Of a stretch of DNA of 32,000 nt, positions 3,001-31,480 are shown piece after piece; positions within the stretch are counted from its first letter, which is position 1; each line of letters starts with the position of its first letter. This DNA is from Minisyncoccota bacterium. GTDB lineage: Bacteria; Patescibacteriota; Minisyncoccia; Minisyncoccales; Minisyncoccaceae. The notes under the pieces were generated by a model, which saw nothing but the letters and a program-made list of their open reading frames with translations, did not search any database and had not been told where the DNA came from. The stretch is taken from NCBI GenBank assembly GCA_041651335.1, contig JBAZJL010000002.1, positions 1 through 32,000 of the forward strand. The letters run 5' to 3'. The position numbers were made by a program, and so were the translations under genes.

Positions 3001-3616
3001 CGACGCCAGAAGGCAAATCCAAATTTGTTGTTTGAGTTCCTTTCTTACATATATTCCCCATACATTCGTTTGTAACATATGCGCCTGCATTCTGCGAAAA
3101 AATTGTACCACAAAGGGCGGTTCGCCTAAAAGCCCAGGTCAGGGTGCATTCAGCGTCTATCTTTTTTGGAGCAGAACAACTAGCGGTTCCGGCCCCATTA
3201 GCGCAAGACCAGTTAAAAATAGTTGTATAAGAAATCGGAGAGCCAGTATAAGGCACCTTTATTCCGCTCTCGGTAACACTAGAAGGAGTTCCTGTGTTAC
3301 ATAAAGCAGTTGGCGTGGTATAAGTTGCTACTCCATTAGCTGATCCACAAACAGGAGGTGACTCATAAGTATATGGAGCATAACACGCAACCATTGTTGG
3401 TGTTCCCCCAACACATAGCCACATCCATTGGTCGCCTTCAAGAGTAACTGATCCCGATGATCCGCTACTGCAAAGATTAACTGTTGGCTCTACCGGCCAT
3501 GATTGTTGTGTTGCTGTTCCGCAAGCAGCAGCTAAAACATTCCCACTGCTAAAAAACAAAAATACAAAACAGCTGGCAATAAAGAAAATTTGTTTGAGCT
3601 TGTTATTAAACCACAT
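1..3616 (-). CDS. Large secreted Cys-rich repeat surface protein. The C-terminus lies beyond the window edge (at least 1205 codons visible). It has a signal peptide, about 13 copies of a ~55-aa Cys repeat, a dockerin-like Ca-binding pair, a DUF2341-like domain and a LamG/concanavalin-like region.
   Basis: Not in the ORF track because there is no stop inside the window. The reverse-strand ATG at 3616-3614 opens MWFNNKLKQIFFIASCFVFLFFSSGNVLAAACGT. I read this frame by eye with no stop down to position 2 (...YLQFYRYSDQ), and both ends are in the same phase. No minus-strand sub-ORF in this frame is listed in the track, which is consistent with one open frame. The repeat pattern is NG.CG..NG..F...P..NLC..G..S.V....W.W.C.G..GG.T.SCSA. 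Dockerin-like motifs YGDTSQNGSINYYD and DVNGNGDGEFDD lie at about 2370-2525. The DUF2341-like stretch is RKPVTV...NYQVKVVV...DFDDIRFTASDGTTELSYWLE...FWVKAPSL...IYIYYGN at about 575-840. It is followed by DNTFVLFDDFNSGTINTSKWT. Confidence 0.8.
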   Translation of the reverse strand, partial: MWFNNKLKQIFFIASCFVFLFFSSGNVLAAACGTATQQSWPVEPTVNLCSSGSSGSVTLEGDQWMWLCVGGTPTMVACYAPYTYESPPVCGSANGVATYTTPTALCNTGTPSSVTESGIKVPYTGSPISYTTIFNWSCANGAGTASCSAPKKIDAECTLTWAFRRTALCGTIFSQNAGAYVTNECMGNICKKGTQTTNLDLPSGVGVANCSGHNGGTSKTCYYTVVSYEGADMIWLMGGEGATPIDGICGPSSGGSFTSAPSSNLCYQGTETGVTTGDTTYTWNCVGSNGGTTASCSATRLIVVNGSCGSANGQSSYDVPTNLCNTGTASSVTTNATTFGWTCAGSNGGTTASCSSNQLSRSIPCGSYGDTSQNGSINYYDVQVAFSQIETLPLNLIDVNGNGDGEFDDIYLIREYVIGNISTFSICSRVNGVCGTANAHGYQATSYIDTAAERCSAGTFSGSFTDNTSSWSWSCVGVSGGTTASCSAPKVACGTYHNTVRRDQPSTNLCAYGSNTTLNLSSNVWLWSCTNNPGVDAACYTYKTTCGSSNGGSFSSAPSANLCTYGTASSVTTGETTYTWTCTGNDSLAVNCSATRVVPVNGTCGSSNGGTFSTAPATNLCSAGSATSVTTNASTYTWSCTGSGGGTTASCSASRTVNGVCGSSNGGTFSTAPSTNLCSAGTSSAVSGTGPWTWTCNGINGGTTASCSANLTSVNGSCGTANTHGYTSTSEIDTVAERCATGTFTSFADAGSSWTWSCTGSGGGTTASCSAPKVACGTYHNTVRRDQPSTNLCAYGSNTTLNLSSNIWLWSCTNNPGVDAACYTYKTTCGSSNGGSFSSAPSTNLCTYGTASSVTTGETTYTWTCIGNDSLAVSCSANIVVVGVGTCGSSNGGTFSIAPTTNLCSAGTASAVSGSGPWAWTCTASSPWLTNYSKRKPVTVSSSSALTNYQVKVVVAYDSDMQADFDDIRFTASDGTTELSYWLESKTDSSTATFWVKAPSLASGSNTIYIYYGNASAVSVSSGDNTFVLFDDFNSGTINTSKWTATCEGTNSGGSVSIVSGELVVTARSSAYASYAGCYLKSNQAYDLRNGYAVRYYAKQYESSGQGLWWYGGFYLTNSTSINVMQNMSTFSGNDGTPDLFIGENSGSTIYNSTNYPGNHTYELRTNGTTITVLSDGSALTSNFTLASQNGYYEKYLQFYRYSDQ

Positions 3617-3646
3617 ATTTTTTTAATTATTTTATTTATTGCTTTT

Positions 3647-8785: not shown

Positions 8786-8807
8786 CTTTTTATTATTATG
8801 TCCGCAT

Positions 8808-8875
8808 ATTAAATTATGTGGACATAATATAGAAAAATTTTGTCCAGATTTGTCCACAAACAAATTATCTGGACA
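8808..8875. promoter_or_regulatory. Cluster of DnaA-box-like TGTCC(A/G)CA / TGTGGACA motifs (left cluster)
   Basis: TTGTCCACA at 8850-8858 matches TTATCCACA at 8/9 positions. TTGTCCAGA at 8840-8848 and TGTGGACAT at 8817-8825 each match at 7/9. Weaker TGTCCGCA and CTGGACA motifs are also present. Confidence 0.4.
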
Positions 8876-8879
8876 TTCC

Positions 8880-8950
8880 CGGGATGTAATATAAAGGCAT
8901 TATGCAGGCTTCGGGAGTCTGTAATCTGGGTTCAATTCCCAGCATCCCGA
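8880..8950 (+). tRNA. tRNA-Pro (anticodon CGG)
   Basis: Acceptor is CGGGATG/CATCCCG. Anticodon stem is CAGGC/GTCTG with loop TTCGGGA. T arm is CTGGG-TTCAATT-CCCAG. Discriminator is A and no CCA is encoded. Confidence 0.88.
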
Positions 8951-9265
8951 CCCATTATTTCACTGGGAATTGAAGGCGGAGGGCCGACGGGCCCGAGCCC
9001 GGCCTGACCGAAACTTCACCAGAAGTTTACGCGAAGGCAATTCCCAACATCCCGACCCATTATTTCACTGGGAATTGAAGGCGGAGGGCCGACGGGCCCG
9101 AGCCCGGCCTGAGCGAAACTTCACCAGAAGTTTACGCGAAGGCAATTCCCAGCATCCCGACCCATTATTTCACTGGGAATTGAAGGCAAAGGGCCGACGG
9201 GCCCGAGCCCGGCCTGACCGAAACTTCACCAGAAGTTTACGCGAAGGCAATTCCCAGCATCCCGA
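8951..9265 (+). repeat. Three tandem 105-bp units. Each holds a GC-rich three-helix module plus a copy of the last 18 nt of tRNA-Pro.
   Basis: CAATTCCCAGCATCCCGA occurs at 8933 (inside the tRNA), 9038 (one mismatch), 9143 and 9248, giving a period of 105 bp. The modules lie at 8963-9047, 9068-9152 and 9173-9257. Confidence 0.95.
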
Positions 9266-9324
9266 CCATTAGTTTTGTTGAGAATTAAGGGCAAATGGCC
9301 GATTAAGACCAAGTCAAGGCCTAA

Positions 9325-9521: not shown

Positions 9522-10285
9522 ATGTTCCACGTAGAACATATTGATTTTTAGATACCCCTACGTATTTTAGAGACGAATGATTAGCTGTTTCAGACAAAAT
9601 GAAAATATTTTAGAAAACATTTCTCCTAAAAATCATTAATCATTTAAGATGTTGTTTGTTTTATTGTTTAAAAATTAATGATGTTCCACGTGGAACATTC
9701 AATTTTTATGCTCTTAAAACATATGTTTATTGATGATCATGGTTTTGGGACAAAATTACATTTTAAAAAACTTTTGCTTTCCTAAAAATCATTAATCATT
9801 TAAGGTGCTGTTATGTTATTATTCTGTAAAATTACGTGTTCCACGTGGAACATTAATGTTTTTTATAGATTAAAATGCCATATTATTAATCATCTATGTT
9901 TTTAAGGAAAAATGTTTTCTAAAATATTTTCATTTTGTCAAAAATCATTAATCATTTAAAGTGTTATTTGTTTTATTGTCTAAAAATTAATGATGTTCCA
10001 CGTGGAACATTAAACTTATATATACTTAAAACTTACAATCATTGATGATCATGGTTTTGGGACAAAATTACATTTAAAAAAACTTTTGTTTTCCTAAAAA
10101 TCATTAATCATTTAAGGTGCTATTATGTTATTATTCTGTAAAATTACGTGTTCCACGTGGAACATTAATGTTTTTTATAGATTAAAATGCCTTATTATTA
10201 ATCATCTATGTTTTTAAGGAAAAATGCTTTTCAAAATATTTTCATTTTGCCTGAAACAGCTAATCATTCGTCGCTAAAATACGTA
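9522..10285. repeat. AT-rich repeat block with five regularly spaced GTTCCACGTGGAAC palindromes, alternating ~156-bp units (A-B-A-B), bounded by 68-bp inverted repeats
   Basis: Palindromes lie at 9522-9539 (one mismatch), 9681-9698, 9837-9852, 9993-10010 and 10149-10164. The marker AAAAATCATTAATCATTTAA recurs at about 9628, 9783, 9939 and 10095. The inverted repeats at 9559-9626 and 10218-10285 differ at about 6 of 68 positions by my count. Confidence 0.9.
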
Positions 10286-10336
10286 AAAACATAAAATTTT
10301 TAATAAAAAACACTAAATAATCTACTATAGTCTTTA

Positions 10337-10470
10337 TGTGGACATAAAATGTTACTTAAAACAAACATTATGTCCACTAATGTCCACTAAATTTTAATGG
10401 ACAAGGTATGTGGACAATTATGTGGAAAAACAATGATTTATGTGGACAAATCCGGACATATTATTTGGAC
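10337..10470. promoter_or_regulatory. Cluster of DnaA-box-like TGTGGACA / TGTCCAC motifs (right cluster)
   Basis: Three boxes match TTATCCACA at 8/9 on the minus strand: TGTGGACAA at 10409-10417, TGTGGAAAA at 10421-10429 and TGTGGACAA at 10441-10449. TGTGGACAT at 10337-10345 matches 7/9. There are also two TGTCCACTAA motifs at 10371-10390 and weaker GGACA motifs. Confidence 0.4.
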
Positions 10471-10559
10471 ATTCTTATTGTTTAAAATAAAAACAAAAAT
10501 TAAGTGGAAATAAAATATTTTGTAATTTTGTCTAATTAAGATATAATTTTAATAAAAAC

Positions 10560-10961
10560 ATGGCTAATTGTTTTAAGGTTGGAAAAATAGGGGAATTAAT
10601 TGCTGAAAAATATTTACAAAAAAACAACTATCAGATAATAGATAGAAATTTTTATTTAATAAGCAAAACAACGAATAAAAAAATAGGGGAAATAGATTTG
10701 ATTGCGAAAAAAAATAAAACCCATATCTTTGTAGAAGTAAAAGCAACTTGCAAAAAGGGCCTAAAAATACCATTAGAGGGTAAAATAAATAAGAAAAAGA
10801 AGAAAAGAATGATTATTGTAAGCGAGGCCTGGCTTTTAAAAAACAAATTGGGCTTTACCATCCCTTGGCAAATTGATATAATCACTATTGAAATTAATTT
10901 GATGGATAAAAAAGCTAGAGTCAAACATTATCAAAACGCAATTGAAGATATAAAAAAATAA
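10560..10961 (+). CDS. yraN: YraN-family (UPF0102) endonuclease-like protein
   Basis: 133 aa. It contains GELIAEKYL, GEIDLIA and FVEVKA. Its stop overlaps the plsY ATG (TAATG). Confidence 0.75.
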   Translation: MANCFKVGKIGELIAEKYLQKNNYQIIDRNFYLISKTTNKKIGEIDLIAKKNKTHIFVEVKATCKKGLKIPLEGKINKKKKKRMIIVSEAWLLKNKLGFTIPWQIDIITIEINLMDKKARVKHYQNAIEDIKK

Positions 10962-11557
10962 TGGAAAAACAACTAATTTTTATTTTTTTCTTAATCGCTG
11001 GATATCTATTAGGATCAATTCCTTTTGGCTACATTATTTCAAAAACAAAAAATATTGATATTCGTAAAAAGGGGAGTGGAGCCACGGGCGCAACCAATGT
11101 TTCTCGTTTTTTAGGACTAAAATATGCTATTTTAGTAGCAGTTTTAGATATTTTAAAAGCTATTATTCCAATATTTTTTGCTAAGTTTTATTTTCAGCCA
11201 GGAATAGAATTGGCCTTGATTTCCATTGCTCCAGTTTTAGGCCACATTTTTCCGGTTTGGCTTAATTTTAAAGGAGGGAAAGGGGTTTCTGTTATTTTTG
11301 CTTCTATAATTATGGTGATTGGATGGAAATATTCATTAATTATTTTGGCTTTTTGGGTTTTATTTTTATTCATTATTAAGATTATGAGCTTAACAAATAT
11401 TCTTCTTTTCTTAATCCTGCCTTTTCTTTTCTGGTATTTAACTCATTCTTATATATATGTAGGTCTGGGAATTTTTTATGTTTTGATTATCTGGTGGGCT
11501 CATCGAGAAAATATCAAACGATTATTGCAGGGAACTGAGCCAAAAATTATAAAATAA
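10961..11557 (+). CDS. plsY: Glycerol-3-phosphate acyltransferase PlsY (acyl-phosphate dependent), paralog 1
   Basis: 198 aa polytopic membrane protein. It contains LLGSIPFGYIISK, KGSGATGATNV and GHIFPVWLNFKGGKGVS. Confidence 0.9.
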   Translation: MEKQLIFIFFLIAGYLLGSIPFGYIISKTKNIDIRKKGSGATGATNVSRFLGLKYAILVAVLDILKAIIPIFFAKFYFQPGIELALISIAPVLGHIFPVWLNFKGGKGVSVIFASIIMVIGWKYSLIILAFWVLFLFIIKIMSLTNILLFLILPFLFWYLTHSYIYVGLGIFYVLIIWWAHRENIKRLLQGTEPKIIK

Positions 11558-12865: not shown

Positions 12866-14653
12866 ATGGAAACACTTACTTATCAGGAGCTGAAAAAAAT
12901 GTTTGTTTTCTCTGCGGAAAAAGTAGAGAGAGACAAAGAACAAATAAATAAAATAAACGTCTTTCCTGTTCCAGACCAAGACACGGGAAGCAATCTTGCT
13001 GCCACGCTTATTGGAATAAAACAAGCAATTGCGGAAAAAGAATTCAAAGGAATGGAAGACTTTGGAGAAACGGTTTTAGACGCTGCCTTAACTGCAGCCC
13101 AGGGGAATACCGGCATAATTTATACTGGTTTTTTGGCTGGATTTATCCCTGCGCTTGATAATAAAGACCCTCAAGCCAAAGATTTAGGCAATGCTTTTAC
13201 TAAAGGATATGAACGGGCCAAAGATTCTATTCAAAACCCAAAAGAGGGAACCATCTTAGACGTTATCAAGGCTTTTGCCGAAACCTTTAATCAAAGCGCT
13301 CAAAACGAAACTGATATTACCAAGCTATTTTTAGAGGCATTTAAATCTGCCAACACTGCTTTATTGGAAACACCAAATAAAATGGAAATTTTAAAAAAAG
13401 CCGGGGTAGTTGATGCCGGTGGCTTAGGTTTTCTTATCATCCTAGAAACATATCTTGATGTTTTACTAGAGAGGTCAGAGGCTTTTTCTGCTGTTAAACC
13501 AGCAATTCTTCGCGAAGAAGAGTCAGCAACAAAAAAGTTTGTTCAAATCTTGTCCAATCGCTACGAAGTTGTTGCTTTAATGCGCCGAACTGATACCAAA
13601 GAATCGGAAATGAGAAATCAGCTTAAAAATTTGGGAAACTGCCTGGACATTATTCAAATAGGCGATCGAACAAAAATTCATATCCACACCGACGATCCTT
13701 ATGACGTTCGAGATATTATTTCAAAAATGGGAGCAGTGGAAAATCTTAGAATTCAAGATATGGCCATGGAAATAGTGGGCGAAGAATCGATTGTAAAAGA
13801 TGTTTCTATTGGAATTGTAATTGACGAAAGAGCAGGATTAAGCCAAAAAATTATTCAGCACTATGATATTGAAGTTATTCCTTTTCGAATAAGCTGGCCC
13901 GAAGAACAACAATTAGAAGGTGAAAATGTTTGCGAAAAAATAAAACATGCTCAAAAAAAAGGGTTGCACAATCGGCCAAAAATAAATCCAATTTCTCCAG
14001 AATTTTTTATGGAATCATTTAAAAAACAACTGGAAAAATTTGAAAACGTTATTTGCATTGTCAGCAGTAGCAAACTTTCAAATAATTATCTTTCTGCCTT
14101 AAAAGCAAAAAGTATGCTAAGCTGGAATCAGAAAGAAAAGATTTTTATAATCGATTCACGACAAATAAGCGCTGGTCAATCCTTGGCAGTTTTAGAAGCA
14201 ATTGAACTGATTAGAGAGCAAAGAAAAATAAAAGAAGTGGTCGCCAGATTGGAAAAAATAATTCCCCAAATTCATTTTTCTGGAATTTTAGAAAACGATC
14301 GCTGGGAGAAAAAGAAAAAATTACCTTCTTGGTTTCAAAAAGAATCTCAAAAAGAATATCTGCTTATCGAAACAAGAGCTGGCCGAATAATCCCAACCCA
14401 AAAAATCAGATCAGAAGATTTTGCCGGAATCCTTTTTAACAAAATAGAACGTTTCGCCCGCCGAGATTTGCAATCTGGAAAAAAAATACGAGCAGTTATT
14501 GCCCATGCCGACAATCCCGAACAAGCGGAAAAGCTAAAAGCTGGATTAAAAACAACAAAAAAGGCTGATATTTCTTTTATCGGAATAACTGATCCAGTAA
14601 CCAGTATTAATGCCTGCCCTGAAAGTTTATTTGTGGGTTGGATAATAAAGTAA
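12866..14653 (+). CDS. fakA: DAK2-domain fatty acid kinase subunit (FakA/YloV-like) with a C-terminal DegV-paralog domain
   Basis: 595 aa. The N-terminus carries INKINVFPVPDQDTGSNL, the DAK2/YloV signature. The C-terminal ~280 aa start IGIVIDERAGL...IPFRISWPEE and contain AHADNPEQAEKLK, which closely resembles the two downstream DegV proteins. Confidence 0.8.
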   Translation: METLTYQELKKMFVFSAEKVERDKEQINKINVFPVPDQDTGSNLAATLIGIKQAIAEKEFKGMEDFGETVLDAALTAAQGNTGIIYTGFLAGFIPALDNKDPQAKDLGNAFTKGYERAKDSIQNPKEGTILDVIKAFAETFNQSAQNETDITKLFLEAFKSANTALLETPNKMEILKKAGVVDAGGLGFLIILETYLDVLLERSEAFSAVKPAILREEESATKKFVQILSNRYEVVALMRRTDTKESEMRNQLKNLGNCLDIIQIGDRTKIHIHTDDPYDVRDIISKMGAVENLRIQDMAMEIVGEESIVKDVSIGIVIDERAGLSQKIIQHYDIEVIPFRISWPEEQQLEGENVCEKIKHAQKKGLHNRPKINPISPEFFMESFKKQLEKFENVICIVSSSKLSNNYLSALKAKSMLSWNQKEKIFIIDSRQISAGQSLAVLEAIELIREQRKIKEVVARLEKIIPQIHFSGILENDRWEKKKKLPSWFQKESQKEYLLIETRAGRIIPTQKIRSEDFAGILFNKIERFARRDLQSGKKIRAVIAHADNPEQAEKLKAGLKTTKKADISFIGITDPVTSINACPESLFVGWIIK

Positions 14654-14657
14654 TTTT

Positions 14658-15548
14658 ATGCTTATGGAAAACTCTTTAGAAAATAAAAAAAATATTGGAC
14701 TGATTGCCGATGAAATGGGAGACTTGCCCGAAGACATGGTTATGGCCAATGAAGTTTCGATTGTAAAATTTAAAATAGATTATGGAGAATTGGAGTCTTT
14801 TCCTGGAAACGTTTATCAAAAAATAAGAGAGGGGGAAAAAAGGGGATTGCCTTCACTATTAAAAACTTCCCAACCATCAATTAATGATTTTTTAAAAATT
14901 TTTAAAGAAAAGCTTCAAAATTTTGAAAAGGTTATTTGTGTCACTTTTTCTTCAAAAATATCAGGCGCTTATAACTCTGCTATTCAAGCAATTAAATTTT
15001 TACCAGCAACAGACCAAAAAAATATTTATGTTTTAGATTCTCTTCAAGGAAGCGGAGCCGAAGGATTGATTATTTTAAAAGTAGCAGAAATGATTAAAGA
15101 GGCTAAATTAAAATTCGAAGAAATTATTGAAGAAATCCAAAAAAATCTAAATAATTTCCGCTTAGTGGCCACTTATGACAAGCCTAAATGGATTGAAGCA
15201 AGTGGACGCTTGCCAAAATTTCTGCCTCTTGCCTTAAATCAAGCGGAAATTCGTAATATTAAACCTATTTTTACTATTAAAAACGGAAAACTAAGCATTA
15301 TCGGCATTAAAAAAAATATCAATGGATTGGGCCAAGCAATTTTTGAAGAATTCAAAAAACAAACTACCAACATTACCACCAAAATCAAGGTGGCAATCAA
15401 CCACGCCGACAATCCCGAACAAGCAGAAAGATTAAAAGGCTTAATCAAAACTTTACCAAACTGCGAAATTGCTTATGTAAATCTTGCCTGTTTCACTATT
15501 GGATCCCATACTGGTCCTGGAACAATGATTCTTTCCTGGCAACAATAA
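14658..15548 (+). CDS. DegV-family fatty-acid-binding protein (FakB-like) 1
   Basis: 296 aa. It contains TSQPSINDF, FSSKISGAYNSA, HADNPEQAERLK and IGSHTGPGT. Confidence 0.88.
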   Translation: MLMENSLENKKNIGLIADEMGDLPEDMVMANEVSIVKFKIDYGELESFPGNVYQKIREGEKRGLPSLLKTSQPSINDFLKIFKEKLQNFEKVICVTFSSKISGAYNSAIQAIKFLPATDQKNIYVLDSLQGSGAEGLIILKVAEMIKEAKLKFEEIIEEIQKNLNNFRLVATYDKPKWIEASGRLPKFLPLALNQAEIRNIKPIFTIKNGKLSIIGIKKNINGLGQAIFEEFKKQTTNITTKIKVAINHADNPEQAERLKGLIKTLPNCEIAYVNLACFTIGSHTGPGTMILSWQQ

Positions 15549-15579
15549 AATAAATATAATTTTATTAATAAATAAAAAT

Positions 15580-16458
15580 ATGAAAAATACTACCATAATC
15601 ATCGGTGATAGCGCTCCTATGACGCCAGAAATAGTAGAAAAATTCGGATTCAATATAGTTGAATTCAAAATTGATTGGCCAGAAGAAGCTGGAATTTTTG
15701 GAAAAAATCTTTTTGAAAAAATGCGCGAAGCAAAAAGAATGAACGTTAAAACAACGCCCAAAACTTCTCAGCCTTCTATTGGCGCTTTTAAAAAAGCTTA
15801 TGAACAAGCTTTTAAAAAAGCTCCCAATGTTTTGGCAATTACTATTAGTTCTGGAATTTCCGGTACTTATAATTCCGCGATCCAGGCAAAAAAAATGTTT
15901 AGCGCAGAAGAACAAAAAAGAATTTTTGTAGTCGATTCTTTTAATGCTGATGCTGCCGAAACAATGCTTGCAATCAAAGCTGCAGAAATGGACGAAATTG
16001 GCATGGAAGCTGAAGAAATTGCTAAAAAAATTGAAAGTTTAAAGCCTCAAACAAAATTATTTGGAATGATTGAAAGCCCTTATTGGCTTGAAGCCGGAGG
16101 CAGACTAAGCCATCCAATCGCCGTGCTTTTAGAACAAATGCAAAAAATAGGAATGAGACCGTTATTGTCAATTATTGATGGAGTAATTAAGCCAGCTAAT
16201 TTAAAAATGCAGGCCAAGGATACGGCCAATGCTTTATTTAAACAAATCGAGGAGCTTGTTAAAGAGCCGTTAGCCCAAGGAAAAAAAATAAGCATCGGAA
16301 TCTCTCATTCCGACACTCTATTCGAAGCAGAAAAATTAAAAGATTTAATTATTAAAAACTTTCCAGAAATAAAAATAGAATTTTTAACCACTATGGGTCC
16401 AGCCATTGGATCGCATACTGGTCCAGGAACTTTAATTTGTTGTTTTGTTGAAGATTAA
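15580..16458 (+). CDS. DegV-family fatty-acid-binding protein (FakB-like) 2
   Basis: 292 aa. It contains TSQPSIGAF, ISSGISGTYNSA and IGSHTGPGT. Confidence 0.88.
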   Translation: MKNTTIIIGDSAPMTPEIVEKFGFNIVEFKIDWPEEAGIFGKNLFEKMREAKRMNVKTTPKTSQPSIGAFKKAYEQAFKKAPNVLAITISSGISGTYNSAIQAKKMFSAEEQKRIFVVDSFNADAAETMLAIKAAEMDEIGMEAEEIAKKIESLKPQTKLFGMIESPYWLEAGGRLSHPIAVLLEQMQKIGMRPLLSIIDGVIKPANLKMQAKDTANALFKQIEELVKEPLAQGKKISIGISHSDTLFEAEKLKDLIIKNFPEIKIEFLTTMGPAIGSHTGPGTLICCFVED

Positions 16459-16475
16459 TAATATTATTTAAAAAT

Positions 16476-17198
16476 ATGGCCTTATTTCCAATTTTGTTAA
16501 TTATTGCTATTTTCTCTTATCTTCTTGGCTCTATTCCTTTTGCACTTGTTTTCAACAAATTAATTTTTAAACAAGATCCTCGTCAAACTGGATCAAAAAA
16601 TTTAGGAGCTTTAAATACTTTAAGAATTAGCACAGAAAAAAAAGGAAAAATAATTGGAGCCCTGTCTTTTTTAATTGTATTTCTCTTGGATGCAGGTAAA
16701 GGGGTAATTGCTGTTTTTTTCGCTCAAAAATTAGCCTTAGCCACAATTACTAATCCTCTTTTACTTGGCCCGGAAGGAACTTCTGTTATAATTTTAGTTG
16801 CTTCGATGGTTGCTGCTTTACTTTCAGTTGTTGGCCATAATTACTCGCTTTATCTTAAATTCAAAGGCGGTCGAGGAGCGGCAACCTTGTTTGGTATTAC
16901 TTTATTTTTAAATTGCCAACTTGCTTGGCTTTGGGCTGGTATCGTTCTTTTAGTAATAATTATTGGAGAAATTTTAGCTGGCCATAAATTTAATAAAAAA
17001 TTAATTCCCCAGGCTATAAATAATCAAATTTTGGGACGTTTGATTGGAGAAATCCTAGGCTTAGGATTAATTTATTTTCTTAATCCTTATATTTTTGCTA
17101 TTGTTTGTTTGCCCTTATTGCCAGTGCTTTTAGCCCATTCTGATCGCCTAGAAGAACAAATGAAAAAAATTAAAGCAAAAAATTACTTAGCAAAATAA
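16476..17198 (+). CDS. PlsY-family acyltransferase, paralog 2
   Basis: 240 aa. It contains LLGSIPFALVF, GSKNLGALNTLR and GHNYSLYLKFKGGRGAAT. Confidence 0.75.
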   Translation: MALFPILLIIAIFSYLLGSIPFALVFNKLIFKQDPRQTGSKNLGALNTLRISTEKKGKIIGALSFLIVFLLDAGKGVIAVFFAQKLALATITNPLLLGPEGTSVIILVASMVAALLSVVGHNYSLYLKFKGGRGAATLFGITLFLNCQLAWLWAGIVLLVIIIGEILAGHKFNKKLIPQAINNQILGRLIGEILGLGLIYFLNPYIFAIVCLPLLPVLLAHSDRLEEQMKKIKAKNYLAK

Positions 17199-17199
17199 A

Positions 17200-17865
17200 A
17201 TGCCTCAACTTTTATTATATTTTTGTTTTTTTGTTTTTTCTTATCTTTTGGGATCAATTCCTTTTAGTTATTTGATTACAAAAATTTTTACTAAAAAAAA
17301 TGTTTTTGAATTAGGTTGGAAAAAAAGTTCGGCCAGCAATGTTATTAAAAACATTGGAAAATTACCAGGAATTTTAGCTTTTTTATTGGATGTTGGTAAG
17401 GGATTTTTAGTGGTTTATTTGGCTCAACAATTGCAATTTTCTTCTTTTCTTCAAGCCTTGGCTGGAATTTGCGCAATCTTAGGACACAATTGGTCTATTT
17501 TTGTAAAAGGCAAAGGAGGAAGGGGTTTGGCCACTTTAGTTGGCGCTGTAATCGGGTTTTCTCCTGTTTTTCTTTTTATTATTGTTATTCCTTGTATTAT
17601 TTTTACTTTTATTTGGACTGCTTCAATCGGCACGATTTTATCTTTAGTGTTTGGAGTTTTTTTGGGTTTTGCTTTTGCAAAGTGGCAAGCGCCTGGATTT
17701 TTAATTTTGATTTCTCTTCTGCCAATTTTTATTAAACGACTAAGTCCGATTAAAGAAATAAATAACATTACTGATCAAGGGGAAAAAAGAGCATTAATCG
17801 AAAACAGACTTTTGTTTGATCAAGACACGGTTCCCAGCTTTCGCATTAAATTTTTTAAAAAATAG
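17200..17865 (+). CDS. PlsY-family acyltransferase, paralog 3 (divergent N-terminal motif)
   Basis: 221 aa. It contains LLGSIPFSYLITK and GHNWSIFVKGKGGRGLAT. The GSGN.GATN motif is degraded to KKSSASNVIKN. Confidence 0.65.
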   Translation: MPQLLLYFCFFVFSYLLGSIPFSYLITKIFTKKNVFELGWKKSSASNVIKNIGKLPGILAFLLDVGKGFLVVYLAQQLQFSSFLQALAGICAILGHNWSIFVKGKGGRGLATLVGAVIGFSPVFLFIIVIPCIIFTFIWTASIGTILSLVFGVFLGFAFAKWQAPGFLILISLLPIFIKRLSPIKEINNITDQGEKRALIENRLLFDQDTVPSFRIKFFKK

Positions 17866-17907
17866 TTTTGACTTTTTTGTTAATAAGTTGTATTTTTTAT
17901 ATCTAAT

Positions 17908-17979
17908 GCCCCCGTAGCTCAACGGATAGAGTTCTGGTCTTCGGAACCAGCGGTGTGGGTTCGAATCCTGCCGGGGGCA
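17908..17979 (+). tRNA. tRNA-Arg (anticodon TCG)
   Basis: Acceptor is GCCCCCG/CGGGGGC. D arm is GCTC-AACGGATA-GAGT. Anticodon stem is CTGGT/ACCAG with loop CTTCGGA. T arm is GTGGG-TTCGAAT-CCTGC, with two wobble pairs. Discriminator is A and no CCA is encoded. Confidence 0.86.
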
Positions 17980-17980
17980 C

Positions 17981-18021
17981 CCTAATACAAAAGATGGCTC
18001 CATGCCATCTTTTGTATTAGG
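17981..18021 (+). other. Perfect 18-bp hairpin immediately 3' of tRNA-Arg
   Basis: CCTAATACAAAAGATGGC-TCCAT-GCCATCTTTTGTATTAGG. Its 3' arm overlaps the 5' arm of the GC-rich module that follows. Confidence 0.7.
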
Positions 18022-18215
18022 ATTGATTCGAAGCCGGAGGGCCGACGGACCCGAGGCAGGCCCTGAGGAATTTTCAGTAGAAAATTACCGAAGGGCGAAT
18101 CCTGCCGAGATATTTTTGAAGGCGAATCCTGCCGAGATATTTTTGAAGGCGAATCCTGCCGAGATATTTTTGAAGGCGAATCCTGCCGAGATATTTTTGA
18201 AGGCGAATCCTGCCA
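18019..18215 (+). repeat. One GC-rich three-helix module (18019-18103) followed by five tandem 27-bp units that re-copy the module 3' edge and the tRNA-Arg T-arm 3' strand
   Basis: GGCGAATCCTGCCGAGATATTTTTGAA starts at 18094, 18121, 18148, 18175 and 18202 (the last copy is decayed). CGAATCCTGCCG is identical to tRNA-Arg positions 17962-17973. Confidence 0.93.
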
Positions 18216-18414: not shown

Positions 18415-18852
18415 ATGATTTTTAATAAAAAATTCAAATATTTTTCTTTTCTTAGCCTTCTTTTTTTGGTTTTTGTTTCTTTTCCAATTATTGCTAATGC
18501 TGCCACTTGTCCAACCTGCGACTCAATTGTTTGTTGTGGAAACGAAGGCCAGCCTGCTTGTACTTTAGCGGATTTGTTTTGTTTAATCCAAAGCATAATA
18601 AATTTCATCTTATGGCAAGTAGTTCCGCCATTAATAGTGATTTGGTTTGCTTATGCTGGTTTTTTAATGCTTACCTCTGGAGGAGATCCTGGAAAAACAA
18701 AACAAGCCAAAGACATGGTTACCGCAGCTTTTATTGGAATAATTCTTGTTTATTCTGCTTGGATGTTAGTTTACTGGTTTATCAGCTTTATCGGAGGGCC
18801 AACTCAAAGTAATTGGCTATTGCAGTTTTTTACTACTCAAACCACTCCTTAA
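18415..18852 (+). CDS. Small secreted two-TM pilin-like protein (TrbC/VirB2-like, the pilin type seen in Patescibacteria) with a Cys-rich N-terminus
   Basis: 145 aa. The signal peptide ends IIANA. Six Cys lie in ATCPTCDSIVCCGNEGQPACTLADLFC. Next come TM1, then LTSGGDPGKTKQAKDMVTAAFIGIILVYS, then TM2. The same core is found in the N-termini of the ORFs at 28789-30096 and 30101-31480. Confidence 0.7.
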   Translation: MIFNKKFKYFSFLSLLFLVFVSFPIIANAATCPTCDSIVCCGNEGQPACTLADLFCLIQSIINFILWQVVPPLIVIWFAYAGFLMLTSGGDPGKTKQAKDMVTAAFIGIILVYSAWMLVYWFISFIGGPTQSNWLLQFFTTQTTP

Positions 18853-18884: not shown

Positions 18885-18957
18885 GCCCCGTTAGCTCAGT
18901 TGGTAGAGCAGGAAGCTCTTAACTTCAAGGTCGTGGGTTCGAATCCCTCACGGGGCA
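18885..18957 (+). tRNA. tRNA-Lys (anticodon CTT)
   Basis: Acceptor is GCCCCGT/ACGGGGC. D arm is GCTC-AGTTGGTA-GAGC. The anticodon loop is CTCTTAA. T arm is GTGGG-TTCGAAT-CCCTC, with one T:T mismatch. Discriminator is A and no CCA is encoded. Confidence 0.86.
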
Positions 18958-19411
18958 CAAACGAACACATGACAGGATAGAAAATATTGATTAATTTAAA
19001 ACGCCGATTAACGAAAGAGGGATTCGAAGCCGGAGGGCCGACGGGCCCGAGGCAGGCCTAAGCGAAACTTCACCAGAAGTTTACGCGAAGGCGAAACCTC
19101 ACGGGGCACAAACGAACACATGACAGTATAGAAAATATTGATTAATTTAAAACGCTGATTAACGAAAGAGGGATTCGAAGCCGGAGGGCCGACGGGCCCG
19201 AGGCAGGCCTGAGCGCAATTTCACCAGAAATTGACGCGAGGGCGAAGCCTCACGGGGCACAAACGAACACATGACAGTATAGAAAATATTGATTAATTTA
19301 AAACGCTGATTAACGAAAGAGGGATTCGAAGCCGGAGGGCCGACGGGCCCGAGGCAGGCCTGAGCGCAATTTCACCAGAAATTGACGCGAGGGCGAAGCC
19401 TCACGGGGCAC
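18958..19411 (+). repeat. Three tandem ~151-bp units. Each has a 60-nt AT-rich spacer, a GC-rich three-helix module and a copy of the tRNA-Lys 3' end.
   Basis: CCTCACGGGGCAC occurs at 18945 (in the tRNA), 19097, 19248 and 19399. The modules lie at 19017-19100, 19168-19251 and 19319-19402. Units 2 and 3 look identical. Unit 1 differs by paired substitutions in a hairpin. Confidence 0.95.
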
Positions 19412-19572
19412 ACAAAAGACCACGACAAAGAACAAGATTGATAGATAAAAAATTAAACAAGGAAGAAAGGAAAAAGTATTTTTTAAAAATTAACAATTAA
19501 ATATCGAAGAGACACCTGTTTTGGTTAAAAAACTAAAACAAGGCGCATAATAAAAAGTAAAAAAATAAAAAA

Positions 19573-27947: not shown

Positions 27948-28811
27948 ATGTCAAGCAATTTTTCCACTGAAAAAACGTTCTTAAATAAGGCCTTTTCTGG
28001 TCCAATTTTAGCTAAAAAATCACTTGGCCAGAATTTTTTACAAGACAAAAATATTATTAATAAAATAATCGCCTCAGCTGGAATCACCAAAAATGATAAT
28101 ATTCTGGAAATTGGGCCAGGCCAAGGGGCTTTAACTTTTTTGTTGGCTTATCATGCAAATAAAGTAATTGCTATTGAAAAAGATGATAATTTAAGCCAAT
28201 TATTAAAAAAAACGATCCAAGATTTAAAAATTAATAATATCGAAGTTTTCAATTCTGATATTATCAAAGAATTAAAACAGGGGAGAGAATCAGAAGCAAT
28301 TAAAAAATTAGGCCGGCATTATCGGGTTATTGCCAATATCCCTTATTATCTTACTGGGCTTTTAATCAGGCTTCTTTTAGAGTCCACTCCTCAGCCAGAA
28401 AACATTACTTTAATGGTCCAAAAAGAAGTGGCACAAAGAATTGTTGAAGCTCCACCAAAAATGAGTCTACTTTCTGTGGCAGTTCAATATTATGCTAATC
28501 CAAAAGTCTTATTTTACGTCTCCAAAACCTGCTTTTGGCCACAGCCCAAAATAGACAGCGCAATCATCAATTTAGAAACTAAAAAATCCCATACTTTAGA
28601 GGCTCAGCTTTTTTTCAAAATTATTAAAGCTGGGTTTTCTTGCCCGCGAAAACAATTATTAAATAACCTATCTTCGGGTTTAAAAATAAGCAAAGAAAAA
28701 TTAAAAAACCGCTTTTTGGAAAACGGTTTTAATCCTTTGCGCCGAGCTGAATCGCTATCAGTAGAAGAATGGGAAAATTTATTAAAAATTATTTACCCGG
28801 CAAAATCGTAA
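27948..28811 (+). CDS. rsmA: 16S rRNA (adenine1518/1519-N6)-dimethyltransferase RsmA/KsgA
   Basis: 287 aa. It contains LGQNFLQD, the SAM motif ILEIGPGQGALT and ANIPYY. Confidence 0.93.
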   Translation: MSSNFSTEKTFLNKAFSGPILAKKSLGQNFLQDKNIINKIIASAGITKNDNILEIGPGQGALTFLLAYHANKVIAIEKDDNLSQLLKKTIQDLKINNIEVFNSDIIKELKQGRESEAIKKLGRHYRVIANIPYYLTGLLIRLLLESTPQPENITLMVQKEVAQRIVEAPPKMSLLSVAVQYYANPKVLFYVSKTCFWPQPKIDSAIINLETKKSHTLEAQLFFKIIKAGFSCPRKQLLNNLSSGLKISKEKLKNRFLENGFNPLRRAESLSVEEWENLLKIIYPAKS

Positions 28812-30096
28812 AATATAAAGGTTTTGTATTTTTTCTATCCTCTATATTATAAACCTTTCCATAGGTAATAGAATTAATACAATTACTTAATCCTTGTTTT
28901 CTAAATAATTGGCAATTCCCATCTTTGTCTTTTAGTAATAAAATAGTTCCTTCACTTATTTTCGCTGACAAAATAGTGTCTCCATCTTGGGGCATTGTTT
29001 CGCAAACTTCAAATTTAAATTCTTTTTGATATTCTGGAACAACGCAATAATTTGGCTCAATAAATGATTTTGTTGAATCATCCCAAATAGAATCTTTTGA
29101 TTCACAATTTGTGCCATTATAAAGCACAACCTCGGAAAGGGGAGTGGCTGGGTCAATTTTTAAAATATAAATAGAAGAAACTTGGCCGATTCCAGAAAAT
29201 TCATCGCTCTCATTAACTCGGACGCTATTTTCTTCGGAATTGTTCGGACTAACTTCGTTTATATTTGATAAATCATTCATTACCCAAGAGCACTTTCCAG
29301 TATAATTATCACCAGAAAAAAGCACGGCCCCATACTTAACAAATCCTTGTTCTGATGGTTGAACTATTTTGATTGATGCGGTTTTTTTATCAAACCCATT
29401 ATTGCCTAAAGCTGGCTGACTATTTAATAAATATAAAGGCGATTTTCTATTATCAAGTTGATAATCAGGGGCATTATAAAGATAAACCCCTGGCCTTTGC
29501 CAATCAAAAGAAATCGAACTGCTTTTGGCAATAAAAATATTGCTTCCGTTCATCACTTCTTGAGGAGTTCCGGAAAAATCTTTTTGCGGGAAAACAAATA
29601 TTCTTGGCAATTCTGATTCGCTGGAAAGCCATTTTATACTAGCTGTATTTTGAGGAACTTCGGTCATATCTCCAGCAATATTCTGTTCTTGCCCATTTTC
29701 GTATTGTAAAATTATTCCTCCGGAATATTGCCCTGGATTCAAGCTTTCTAAGGTATTTTTATTAATTCCGGAATTAATCGTGTTTAAAATCATTATTGAG
29801 CCGAATAAAACAATAAGCCCAACAAAAGATCTTGTTATTTCTCTTTTTGCTTTTTCTATTTTCCCGATTTCTCCCTTGGAAAGAAAATAGGAGATAGCTC
29901 CAAAAATAAGAACAAATGAGGCTGCTACCATTCCAAAAAATAAAGCAAAATTAAAAAAATAAACAAAATAATTAGTAAACGTAGGATTAGCAGGTAAAGA
30001 CACTCCGCCAATTGAAGGATAAGTAATTTCCATTGCCCAAGCATTATTGCTATAAAACAGTCCCAAAATAAATAAAAATAAATTGTTTTTTTCCAT
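28789..30096 (-). CDS. Secreted protein with a pilin-like two-TM N-terminal module and a Cys-containing beta-rich C-terminal domain (paralog A)
   Basis: 435 aa. It has a signal peptide and the core FGAISYFLSKGEIGKIEKAKREITRSFVGLIVLFGSIMILNTIN. The C-terminal motifs are VVLYNGTNC and DGNCQLF. Confidence 0.7.
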   Translation of the reverse strand: MEKNNLFLFILGLFYSNNAWAMEITYPSIGGVSLPANPTFTNYFVYFFNFALFFGMVAASFVLIFGAISYFLSKGEIGKIEKAKREITRSFVGLIVLFGSIMILNTINSGINKNTLESLNPGQYSGGIILQYENGQEQNIAGDMTEVPQNTASIKWLSSESELPRIFVFPQKDFSGTPQEVMNGSNIFIAKSSSISFDWQRPGVYLYNAPDYQLDNRKSPLYLLNSQPALGNNGFDKKTASIKIVQPSEQGFVKYGAVLFSGDNYTGKCSWVMNDLSNINEVSPNNSEENSVRVNESDEFSGIGQVSSIYILKIDPATPLSEVVLYNGTNCESKDSIWDDSTKSFIEPNYCVVPEYQKEFKFEVCETMPQDGDTILSAKISEGTILLLKDKDGNCQLFRKQGLSNCINSITYGKVYNIEDRKNTKPLYFTILPGK

Positions 30097-30100
30097 AAAT

Positions 30101-31480
30101 TTAATCTATTGGCAAAAATTCAAAAATATCAGGATTGCTAACGCTAGTTTCTAAAATTGAACAAACGCAATTACCAGAACAAAAATCTTTTTTATCAAAA
30201 TATTGACATTTATTCCCTTCAACTAAAACCACGCCGACAGGGCCATTAATTTTAAATGATTTTATTTTAAAGTCTTGGCCACAAGCTGAATCTAAATAAA
30301 TTCCCCAAGGATTTTCATAAATTTCTTGTTCGCAAGATTTTTGTTCGGGATCGCTTTCGTTTTTTTGACAATTAAGAGTATTATAAAAAGTTACTGTCCC
30401 ACTTACTTCCGTGCTTCCTGTTGTAGTGTATTTAAAAGCAATGGCTGAGCTTACATTATAGCCAAAAGGAATTAATGGCTTGCCTAATTGTCCCTCTTGA
30501 TTCAAATCAGAAAATCCAGTCCCGGTTCCTCCAGTTGGAAAAAACTCCAAACATGTTCCTCTAAATTCAGGCTCGGAAAAAAATACTGCTCCGGGCGTAG
30601 TTCCTAAAAATCCAACATGATTTTCTGGATCGGCTATAGTAAATCGCGGGGCAATAATTTGAACTGATTGAGTTTTATGAAAAAAATTAGGATTAGTTTT
30701 AGAAAAATCATTAACACTGCCTGTTAAGAAAAATGGAGAAATCGACCCATCGCCAACTTCAAAATTAGGCTTGTCGTATAAATAAATTCCTTCTCTTTTT
30801 TCAATTATTTTATAAGATTTTAACTTTGTGCCATCAACAGTTGGACTAAGTGCTAAGTCTTTTACTTCTGCTTCGGGATTAGCTGGATCAGGAAAAAGCT
30901 TAATCGGCGACCCTTTAAAGCCAGATTCAACAAATCCCCAAATTTCTTTTAAGCCATCGTATTTTGTAATCACAATACTTTCTCCTTCTTGTAATACTAA
31001 ATTATCATTAGCCATTGGAATAGACATTTCCAACGTTGTTTTTGCCTTTTCATTTATTATTTTCGTAACTGTTACGCAGATTGGAACGTCTTTGCATTCT
31101 ATTGCTTTGATTGGAGTATTAACTAAAGATTTATTAACCGTATTTAAGATTAAATGGCAAGAAAATAAAACAATCAAACCCACAAAAGCTCCCAAGGCTT
31201 GATTTCTGGCTGAGCTTATTTTCGTGGGTATTCCTCCACTGTTTAAAAAATTAAAACCAGCCATTACCAAAACAATAAATGCGATTATCGCTCCTAGGCT
31301 CACTAAAACATAAAACATATAAACAACATACTGGTCTGGGGTAGATTCATCGGTAATGGTTATTTTTTGGCCATCGATGGTTGTTATTTCCGGATATTGA
31401 GTTTCCAAAGCAGAGCAGGGCTGGATTAAAAAAACTGCTAATAATAAAACTCCGAAAATAATTATTGATGTTTTTTTCAT
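30101..31480 (-). CDS. Secreted protein with a pilin-like two-TM N-terminal module and a Cys-containing beta-rich C-terminal domain (paralog B)
   Basis: 459 aa. It has a signal peptide and the core MAGFNFLNSGGIPTKISSARNQALGAFVGLIVLFSCHLILNTVN. The C-terminal motifs are VTFYNTLNC, GNKCQYF and SGNCVC. Confidence 0.7.
   Translation of the reverse strand: MKKTSIIIFGVLLLAVFLIQPCSALETQYPEITTIDGQKITITDESTPDQYVVYMFYVLVSLGAIIAFIVLVMAGFNFLNSGGIPTKISSARNQALGAFVGLIVLFSCHLILNTVNKSLVNTPIKAIECKDVPICVTVTKIINEKAKTTLEMSIPMANDNLVLQEGESIVITKYDGLKEIWGFVESGFKGSPIKLFPDPANPEAEVKDLALSPTVDGTKLKSYKIIEKREGIYLYDKPNFEVGDGSISPFFLTGSVNDFSKTNPNFFHKTQSVQIIAPRFTIADPENHVGFLGTTPGAVFFSEPEFRGTCLEFFPTGGTGTGFSDLNQEGQLGKPLIPFGYNVSSAIAFKYTTTGSTEVSGTVTFYNTLNCQKNESDPEQKSCEQEIYENPWGIYLDSACGQDFKIKSFKINGPVGVVLVEGNKCQYFDKKDFCSGNCVCSILETSVSNPDIFEFLPID

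Follow-up and report, generated by a model that had tools for sequence, protein, structure and literature searches.

The integrative elements of the T-loop class, a class of tRNA integration that reportedly goes back to Williams in 2002, are marked by a direct repeat of the tRNA 3′ end that begins in the T-loop; the inserted copy restores the tRNA, and tandem arrays are possible. In the attP(+) site of CTX-phi, which is used by XerCD, inverted segments anneal within a single strand and rebuild the target duplex. Box C/D guide RNAs are recognized by a kink-turn (K-turn) made of a C box (RUGAUGA) and a D box (CUGA), with a guide that ends 5 nt upstream of D. Integron attC sites are conserved in structure and variable in sequence, and their conserved unpaired or extrahelical bases give strand specificity (PMC5027507). 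Unusual guide systems with Nop domains and “stem arrays” have been reported from bacteria of the candidate phyla radiation (CPR; PMC12045711), and the TIGR arrays described there consist of two alternating 8–12-nt repeats with ~9-nt spacers, or of stem units (box C/CCA, D/UG), accompanied by the Nop-domain protein Tas (PMC12045711). Here we describe a structured, non-coding module of 84 nt that stands in seven copies behind tRNA genes in a 32,000-nt stretch of a Minisyncoccota genome (GenBank assembly GCA_041651335.1, contig JBAZJL010000002.1, positions 1–32,000 of the forward strand; hereafter “the window,” meaning this whole stretch).

This module is best read as a member of a large family, not described before, of small cassettes that code for nothing and occur in Patescibacteria (genomes of the Paceibacteria type). 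A first-pass annotation made from the sequence alone had aligned seven copies in the window, and these are the copies that both a 20-mer of the module and a covariance model return. Specifically, GGAGGGCCGACGGGCCCGAG has seven matches with at most three mismatches, all on the + strand, against 0.00 expected, and the model, built from homologues, finds precisely seven window copies at 81–104 bits, again all on the + strand. Every copy lies 3′ of tRNA-Pro, tRNA-Arg or tRNA-Lys, and the modules have a G+C content of 56–65% against ~34% for the window as a whole. The annotation's remark that this is no recognized RNA family also holds against Rfam 15, Y RNA, 5S rRNA and tRNA-like elements included: only five tRNAs in the window pass the gathering threshold, and at E-values up to 10 both module regions leave the module uncovered, apart from noise at <15 bits. 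No Rfam ribozyme model (hammerhead, twister-sister, hatchet, pistol) matches the module regions. A hammerhead was also rejected on its anatomy (junction strands of 2, 1–2 and 0 nt; CUGAUGA and GAAA core absent), as were domains 5 and 6 of a group II intron, where a bulged A does lie 8–9 nt from the core end, but P2 (see below) is 25 nt long without an AGC triad and RF00029 is unmatched. Literature searches returned no description of the module, and its exact core string occurred only in an unrelated human paper.

Each unit runs, in order, through X-acc, a copy of the tRNA trailer (often with a terminator-like hairpin), X′ and the core. X-acc starts at C56 and copies the tRNA onward, taking in the 3′ strands of both the T-stem and the acceptor stem as well as the discriminator; X′ is 10 nt, the reverse complement of tRNA positions 56–65 (the 3′ half of the T-loop plus the T-stem), followed by AA; and the core of ~62 nt forms two hairpins, P2 and P3. 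Paired with the next X, X′ makes the outer helix P1, which is a duplex copy of the T-loop/T-stem segment of the neighboring tRNA gene. P1 had been annotated as built from locus-specific flanks; it is instead composed of a complement of tRNA positions 56–65 and a copy of the tRNA 3′ end. This T-arm origin of P1, together with the duplication of the tRNA 3′ end, escaped the first pass and is the main clue to the nature of the element. That X′ complements the T-loop rather than copying the 5′ half of the T-arm follows from tRNA-Pro, where the T-loop TTCAATT is non-palindromic and X′ reads AATTGAA, which rules out the 5′-half candidate.

The core has a constant architecture. P2 takes the form GSC-GNA-5 bp-GACG-5 bp-GA-GSC, and P3 rises from a base in which GCC-U-GA-G pairs with C-GA-A-GGC through tandem G·A pairs, above which a bulged A and 7 bp lead up to an ANCA loop. 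What had been drawn as single-stranded junction strands, (G)GCCTGA and GAAGG(C), is this paired and covarying base of P3; their pairing is confirmed by lineages in which the G·A pairs are replaced by Watson–Crick pairs (loci L001 and L122) or by GGTCGCG/CGTGACC (L034, L051 and L093). Minimum-free-energy folds of the copies are three-way junctions; the z scores range from −3.8 to −6.6 when the copies are folded as RNA and from −2.5 to −6.1 when they are folded as DNA.

The fold is borne out across the family. A pattern scan of species-representative genomes matched only metagenome-assembled genomes of Patescibacteria/Paceibacterota, plus three GC-rich chance matches, which bears out the first-pass annotation in its choice of Patescibacteria, and a scan of metagenomes added ~30 low-GC loci; a covariance model built from 24 distinct copies then gave 90 matches on the collected loci, 58 of them distinct and many with quite different P2 and P3 stems. 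In these 58 homologues 94.0% of cells are paired (72.5% in shuffles), 29 of the 30 pairs change on both sides, and the covariation score is 0.476 versus 0.146, a value reached in 0/500 shuffles and by none of the slid controls (≤0.105). The conserved three-way junction of the first-pass annotation is thus upheld, and its covariation survives the addition of homologues; the seed alignment behaves in the same way. The conserved positions are the unpaired ones—loops, bulges and G·A internal loops—and comprise the AA after X′, the G-N-A opposite G-A in P2, the G·A pairs at the P3 base and the A-N-C-A loop, with the GACG loop kept in 45/46 copies and the bulged A in 41/46. Because pairs covary among homologues and unpaired positions stay conserved, the structure is real and selected at the level of the family. 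Outside these genomes, blastn against GenBank phages and PLSDB plasmids did not match the module, and two patterns run against IMG/VR met only GC-rich contigs at ≤28 bits, which we treat as chance. High-GC 19- to 24-mer matches in genome or metagenome contigs (Streptomyces, Nitrospira, Dormiibacterota and others) were likewise set aside as chance.

The link to tRNA genes is equally regular. Nearly all of the ~58 distinct copies lie on the same strand as the tRNA gene, the first copy 11–63 nt downstream, and the host tRNAs cover at least 12 amino acids (Lys, Pro, four Arg isoacceptors, Val, Ala, Ser, Thr, Leu, Cys, Gln, Ile and Gly). X′ has a mean of 1.36 mismatches to the complement of positions 56–65 of its own tRNA versus 3.46 for other tRNAs, a fit equaled in 0/10,000 permutations. 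At units whose upstream X, on the tRNA side, is not the same as the downstream X, X′ agreed 10 times with the upstream copy and once with the other; the conserved complementarity is therefore to the tRNA itself, and it is the downstream copy that decays. In at least nine loci with a perfect 10-mer (checked by eye) the complementarity ends at position 65, the end of the T-stem. The direct duplication starts at C56 and spans 8–90 nt, often to the end of the tRNA and sometimes into its trailer, and the spacer between tRNA and X′ usually contains a long palindromic terminator-like hairpin. Two sources for the duplicated segment were tried and rejected, namely a 3′ fragment of a terminated primary transcript, since the right end does not regularly fall at the terminator, and a mature-tRNA template, since CCA appears in the duplicated copy at only one or two loci and other duplications reach the trailer. 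Within module-bearing loci 29 of the 62 distinct tRNA genes have a module behind them, and the same isoacceptor may be occupied or empty.

In the window, where all of the following features lie on the + strand, the Lys array (18946–19412; 3.1 units of 151 bp, 97% matches, Tandem Repeats Finder score 871) follows its target gene tRNA-Lys(CUU) (18885–18958; called by ARAGORN, Rfam tRNA at 67 bits), whose positions 56–65, CGAATCCCTC, are complemented by X′. Its unit consists of X plus the acceptor 3′ strand (the tRNA 3′-end copy), a trailer copy of ~58 nt, X′ and the core. Lys-1 (19017–19100; covariance model 96 bits; RNA fold −41.1 kcal/mol, z −5.9) has X′ at 19017–19028 (GAGGGATTCGAA), the P2 + P3 core at 19029–19091 and X at 19092–19100 (CGAAACCTC), followed by the acceptor 3′ strand ACGGGGCA. 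Lys-2 (19168–19251; 94 bits; z −4.7) carries the P3 variant GCGCAATTTC/GAAATTGACGC, and Lys-3 (19319–19402; 94 bits) is identical to it. P1 is imperfect in all three copies: X′ is perfect against the tRNA, and X reads CGAA[A/G]CCTC, one substitution and one deletion away from the CGAATCCCTC of the tRNA. Beyond Lys-3 a diverged copy of the tRNA trailer runs into the upstream region of rpsO; it aligns to the trailer of the unit with a score of 45, reached by 2/500 shuffles.

The Pro array (8933–9271; 3.2 units of 105 bp, 97% matches, score 643) has no terminator between tRNA-Pro(CGG) (8880–8952; T-loop TTCAATT, T-stem 3′ strand CCCAG) and its first module. In Pro-1 (8963–9047; 99 bits; core 8975–9037, X from 9038), X′ at 8963–8974 (CTGGGAATTGAA) matches, as an exact reverse complement, the T-loop of this tRNA together with the 3′ strand of its T-stem; Pro-2 (9068–9152; 104 bits) folds as RNA at −47.1 kcal/mol (z −6.6); and in Pro-3 (9173–9257; 95 bits) the P2 internal loop GGA has become AAA. 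A decayed, truncated fourth unit (9257–9324), which the covariance model does not pick up, aligns to the unit with a score of 54 that 0/500 shuffles reach; it is recognizable to ~9302, in the 5′ half of P2, and touches the first base of tRNA-Val. Unlike the Pro and Lys arrays, the Arg module (18019–18104; 81 bits; z −3.8) is a single copy, separated from tRNA-Arg(UCG) (17907–17982) by a perfect 17-bp palindromic terminator-like hairpin (17982–18020). Its X′ is degenerate (GGATTGATTCGAA), its P2 has one mismatch (GACCC), and its X is CGAATCCTGCCG at 18096–18107. After it comes a perfect 27-bp repeat in 4.5 copies (18094–18214; 100% matches in Tandem Repeats Finder), each consisting of X (CGAATCCTGCCG), the 11-nt GAGATATTTTT and GAAGG. 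From their sequence these repeats look like module units that may have lost the core by deletion between flanking GAAG repeats; the same 27-bp repeats occur in strain L152, and a similar core-less unit in L047.

Comparison among related loci reveals gain, loss and exchange. In Paceibacterota LW4_57 (L003), no module stands behind tRNA-Lys, and the trailer of this tRNA passes straight into the region upstream of rpsO; at the equivalent site the filled counterpart L047 has two modules flanked by a direct duplication that comprises X-acc and 27 nt of trailer. Among strains with an identical S15 protein, one (L135) has one Lys unit versus three in the window, two others (L132 and L133) have other P3 types at the same Lys site, and partial units are also seen; most short-read assemblies of this group (L132–L141) end inside or at the edge of the Lys array. 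Behind tRNA-Arg, L152 (GCA_030154545.1) has identical flanks and a wholly different terminator hairpin, X′ and core, which places the hairpin in the swapped block, and L003 and L152 have the hairpin and X′ in common but a different core. Therefore, the whole block and the core alone have both been exchanged. Remnants include units cut after 6, 10 or 34 nt of core, P3-only units and core-less units.

These polymorphisms qualify what can be read from the window by itself. The P2 swap between GCC…GGC and GGC…GCC and the double substitutions in P3, which the first-pass annotation had taken as compensatory change, are indeed present in the sequence, and selection on structure is supported across the family; but since one and the same tRNA, with unchanged flanks, bears quite different P2/P3 variants from strain to strain, the differences between the window loci are not compensation in place. 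The variants are instead swapped in by recombination or insertion. Copies inside one array, being 97–100% identical, say nothing on selection. Likewise, “not a decaying repeat” holds only in part, for the arrays themselves end in truncated or decayed units.

Some loci present the module in other settings. Behind tRNA-Ile(UAU) in L006 there are only a terminator, X′ and the first 10 nt of core, and behind tRNA-Leu(GAG) in the same locus a terminator-like hairpin has the anti-T-arm 13-mer (GGGGACTTGAACC) in its loop, and no core is present. In L056 (5540–5800, Ga0302250 metagenome contig), the T-loop of a second tRNA-Arg(GCG) copy is interrupted by an antisense module that carries an extra hairpin (CTTGATTG-taat-CAATCAAG); at a distance of 40 nt there is an intact tRNA-Arg(GCG), and the duplication stops precisely at position 1 of the tRNA. 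The extra-hairpin variant recurs in the loop of a non-tRNA hairpin (ATGTTTGGGGG...CTCCCAAACAT) in L002 (100–260 and 1560–1740), L035 and L042; the two L002 sites flank a gene taken to be rarA on its translation, without a Pfam scan, and one site of this type has an additional P3-only unit. In L124 (5380–5730), away from any tRNA, three modules of mixed orientation occupy the interval between uvrC and ddl; they have a conserved outer inverted repeat of their own (AATAGTCTT...AAGAGCTATT) and a GAGA loop in P3. In L101, a more GC-rich relative with the gene order of the window, a five-hairpin composite (1900–2100) lies within GGACG…CGTC 80 nt upstream of tRNA-Arg and comprises a P3-like hairpin, an AT-rich hairpin, P2, P3 and a second P2-like hairpin with a GACG loop.

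We tentatively favor, at somewhat under an even chance, the reading that the module is the recognition or recombination part of a non-coding cassette that inserts at the tRNA T-loop. Insertion would occur by recombination whose fixed end would be position 55/56, within the T-loop. Once the unit is single-stranded or circular, X′ would pair with X, and the X′/X duplex would rebuild the exchange stretch of the tRNA gene atop the three-way junction, whose invariant unpaired purines would be read by a putative trans-acting enzyme. Because the cassette supplies or duplicates the tRNA 3′ end, insertion is proposed to leave the tRNA intact; the old 3′ end would be displaced and then decay, and unequal or repeated recombination would produce arrays, core-less units and allele swaps. 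Single-stranded DNA as the active form, the circular intermediate and the identity of the enzyme are elements that we infer. X′ may be written by fold-back copying of X, with which the sharp end at position 65 is compatible without being proof. It is doubtful, though worth stating, that the mechanism is one not described before, either a target-templated mobile element without genes or a guide RNA against the T-arm of the neighboring tRNA. In the target-templated version a folded strand, of DNA or RNA, would carry the recombining T-arm segment as its outer helix, fold-back synthesis on the three-way junction would write this T-arm copy anew for every further tRNA, and a putative CPR enzyme would read the invariant purine loops. 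In either version the result would be tRNA-directed recombination or modification guided by structure or by RNA.

The cassette logic proposed here would, by analogy, be that of attC and CTX-phi attP(+), without their defining sequence features. As in attC, structure is conserved over sequence: the stems vary, and a bulged A and a bulged N in GNA/GA are present, which would correspond to the conserved extrahelical bases of attC (PMC5027507) if the active form were a folded DNA strand. As in integrons, too, short units are arrayed beside a fixed site with degenerate distal units, intragenomic copies are alike, and the site is complete only once the two ends of a unit join. However, RYYYAAC/GTTRRRY core sites are absent (the outer stem X′/X, e.g., GAGGGATTCG/CGAATCCCTC, has no AAC…GTT boxes), no intI or attI lies near the module (a Pfam scan of window open reading frames, ORFs, found housekeeping genes only), the module docks at a tRNA T-loop with an outer stem that copies its target, and instead of an ORF the unit brings just a tRNA 3′ end and a terminator. 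The likeness to CTX-phi attP(+) is one of form only. Here X′/X is the duplex of tRNA gene positions 56–65, the target is the T-arm of a tRNA rather than dif, P1 measures only 10–12 bp on a three-way junction, and the module comes without a phage genome, no copy in a single-stranded DNA phage having been found among GenBank phages or in IMG/VR. With T-loop-class elements the module shares the direct repeat that begins in the T-loop (at C56), the restored tRNA and the tandem arrays, yet its units are of ~100–170 bp with neither integrase nor cargo and only spurious ORFs, one module family serves many tRNAs with a matching anti-T-arm each, and the duplications take in the local trailer.

Several points weigh against insertion at the T-loop. 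Neither the window nor the surroundings of the modules examined contain a recombinase, transposase, reverse transcriptase or HUH (rolling-circle nuclease) gene, and Pfam scans of window ORFs and of the neighbors of non-tRNA copies returned housekeeping genes only. The circular or free cassette is a form that we infer, phage and plasmid records (GenBank phages, PLSDB, IMG/VR) gave no convincing module copy, and the cassette model does not explain how the X and X′ of a new tRNA are acquired. Ordinary homologous recombination after DNA uptake could be the source of the strain differences, and the occupancy figures are biased because the sampled loci were chosen for carrying a module. There are also points for RNA, namely the tRNA-matching orientation, the purine-rich internal loops and a Pro array that, having no terminator before it and lying inside a tRNA cluster, is probably transcribed; tandem G·A pairs, a bulged A and conserved tetraloops are features typical of protein-binding RNAs.

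These last points lead to the main alternative, which we hold to be unlikely but of real weight: a host-useful structured RNA in tRNA 3′ trailers, transcribed with the tRNA gene or by read-through from it, in which P1 or X′ would imitate the T-arm or base-pair with it. Such an element might serve as a tRNA-like processing signal for RNase P or RNase Z (in the manner of plant mitochondrial t-elements), as a barrier to 3′ exonucleases or as the binding site of a protein particular to CPR bacteria. Such an RNA would account for an orientation that agrees with that of the tRNA with one exception, for unpaired purines and tetraloops that stay fixed amid freely covarying stems, for very stable RNA folds and for the Pro array in its tRNA cluster; moreover, the same tRNAs (Arg-UCG, Lys-CUU, Val-UAC) carry modules across several genera, and the complementarity of X′ to the tRNA persists though the downstream X drifts. 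Yet a strong terminator-like palindrome precedes most modules and the promoter scan found nothing promoter-like inside any unit; presence, copy number and allele vary among near-identical strains; truncated or decayed copies are common; antisense and mixed orientations occur; and a plain closing helix needs neither T-arm sequence nor a duplicated tRNA 3′ end. Base-pair composition speaks to the same question. Wobble pairs make up 9 of ~940 pairs in P2 + P3 (~1%) versus 40/672 (~6%) in the acceptor and T stems of same-locus tRNAs, a six-fold deficit, with 3 A·C mismatches in modules versus 1 in tRNA stems; counts of G·U against A·C as a guide to the strand are weak (9 vs. 3 in P2/P3, 21 vs. 18 in P1). 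The scarce wobble pairs and the position behind terminator-like hairpins, along with the lack of a promoter-like site and the antisense or mixed copies, lean toward a DNA form, and a mobile element with an RNA intermediate would fit the data as well.

If the units were attR-side relics of larger integrative elements or prophages with a T-loop-class tyrosine integrase—the core being an attP arm beside the crossover, left after internal deletion like a solo long terminal repeat—one would understand why the direct repeat of the tRNA 3′ end begins in the T-loop, which is the signature of that class, and why the tRNA 3′ end is restored by a cassette that in many cases also supplies a terminator. 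We regard this as improbable: the units span only 105–170 bp with no integrase inside or adjoining, the module was not found on phage, plasmid or viral contigs (GenBank phages, PLSDB, IMG/VR), the duplications include locus-specific trailer, a double-stranded site would lack its left half-site beside the T-loop, and one core stands behind tRNAs for at least 12 amino acids with X′ matched each time, which is impossible for a single protein-read attP. There is also a small chance that the module is a guide-RNA gene, in which X′ (and X) would serve as guides directed at the T-arm, in the tRNA itself or in its gene, with the core as a protein scaffold, by analogy with TIGR-Tas or IS110 dual guides for both DNA strands or with archaeal box C/D guides for Cm56 (2′-O-methylcytidine at position 56). 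A tRNA-specific antisense segment of 10–12 nt does lie directly 5′ of a conserved scaffold, X′ and X match both strands of one site, and tandem G·A pairs occur with a CUGA motif; TIGR-Tas systems, moreover, share with the module their CPR hosts and tandem structured units complementary to both target strands (PMC12045711). But X′ and X, being mutually complementary, would mask each other, and the guides are not diverse, each matching only its neighboring tRNA (and the other guide). Read by eye, the units have neither alternating 8–12-nt repeats with 9-nt spacers nor a C box (RUGAUGA), a 3-nt K-turn bulge or a CCA/UG box pattern; most copies have CUGA, but their G·A pairs sit in a symmetric or 1-nt-bulge context, and Pfam scans found no Nop, Tas or Cas gene in the window. 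Least credible, to the point of being nearly negligible, is ordinary tandem duplication of tRNA-flanking DNA, with the structure as an unselected by-product of GC-rich palindromes. In its favor, the copies of one array are 97–100% identical, but ~50 further distinct copies keep all helices by double substitutions with their loops fixed, shuffled and slid controls fail, and the 20-mer has 0 expected chance matches; the unselected-repeat reading is contradicted by the covariation and by these controls.

[quoted passage not shown] In contrast to REP/BIME and MITEs, however, the module is extremely selective in its target, standing behind tRNA genes in fixed orientation. Its P1 differs with each tRNA and derives from the target T-arm, no parent insertion sequence was found, and its duplication runs 8–90 nt from C56 to a variable end, as opposed to the fixed short target-site duplication of MITEs (2–10 bp). 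Compared with the simple imperfect palindrome of ~20–40 nt in REP/BIME, it is an 84-nt branched three-way junction with conserved loops; the GTAG head of REP is absent, and no REP-associated tyrosine transposase (RAYT) is known for it, a RAYT link not having been searched genome-wide. Plant mitochondrial t-elements and mascRNA resemble the module in being structured, standing beside tRNA genes and borrowing tRNA sequence or shape, with a helix of about one turn that bears T-stem sequence, but the module has no T-loop or acceptor 5′ strand, usually lies behind a terminator, and is polymorphic and arrayed.

The remainder of the window is unexceptional in its gene content near the modules, the neighbors being ordinary chromosomal genes (CCA-adding enzyme, NusA, trigger factor, PlsY, S15 and polynucleotide phosphorylase, PNPase). 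Other observations were made in passing. The DnaA-box-like TTATGTGGACA has 20 matches (≤2 mismatches) versus 7.6 expected, and two clusters of such boxes, at 8799–8875 and 10334–10510 (also 9624–10268), flank the tRNA-Ala/Pro/Val cluster; the cumulative GC-skew minimum lies near 7–8 kb, and there is a 156/312-bp tandem repeat with GTTCCACGTGGAAC palindromes. Together, these clusters, the skew minimum and the palindromic tandem repeat suggest a chromosomal replication origin. A lipid-related cluster holds three paralogues of PlsY (glycerol-3-phosphate acyltransferase), a FakA-like gene and two DegV genes (10961–11557, 16476–17198, 17200–17865 and 12866–16458), a redundancy unusual for a small genome. 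Between tRNA-Arg and tRNA-Lys lies a small ORF (18415–18852) resembling a pilin of type IV secretion systems, an arrangement kept in L047, L101 and L152, and two large proteins (28789–30096 and 30101–31480) give weak pilin-domain matches. Positions 1–3620 appear to lack ORFs because a stop-free frame of >1207 aa on the − strand runs off the window start; Rfam has no match in 1–3620.

Arrays of the module break short-read assemblies at tRNA genes and can be confused with pseudo-tRNAs or CRISPR-like arrays, which is of practical concern for genomes of this kind. With respect to novelty, the target-derived stem is unprecedented, whereas the general kind—a small structured intergenic cassette or repeat, or a tRNA-targeting insertion—is already known. 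With the module, Patescibacteria, for which very few non-coding elements have been described, gain a structured non-coding family that is well supported. Its tRNA-copied outer stem, the duplicated tRNA 3′ end, the empty sites and the strain swaps point to a targeted insertion process without a known enzyme. If the reading as a single-strand “target mimic” is true, the logic of attC and CTX-phi would also hold for tRNA genes and for cassettes reduced to ~100 bp; if instead the RNA reading is true, the module would represent a new class of tRNA-linked RNA.

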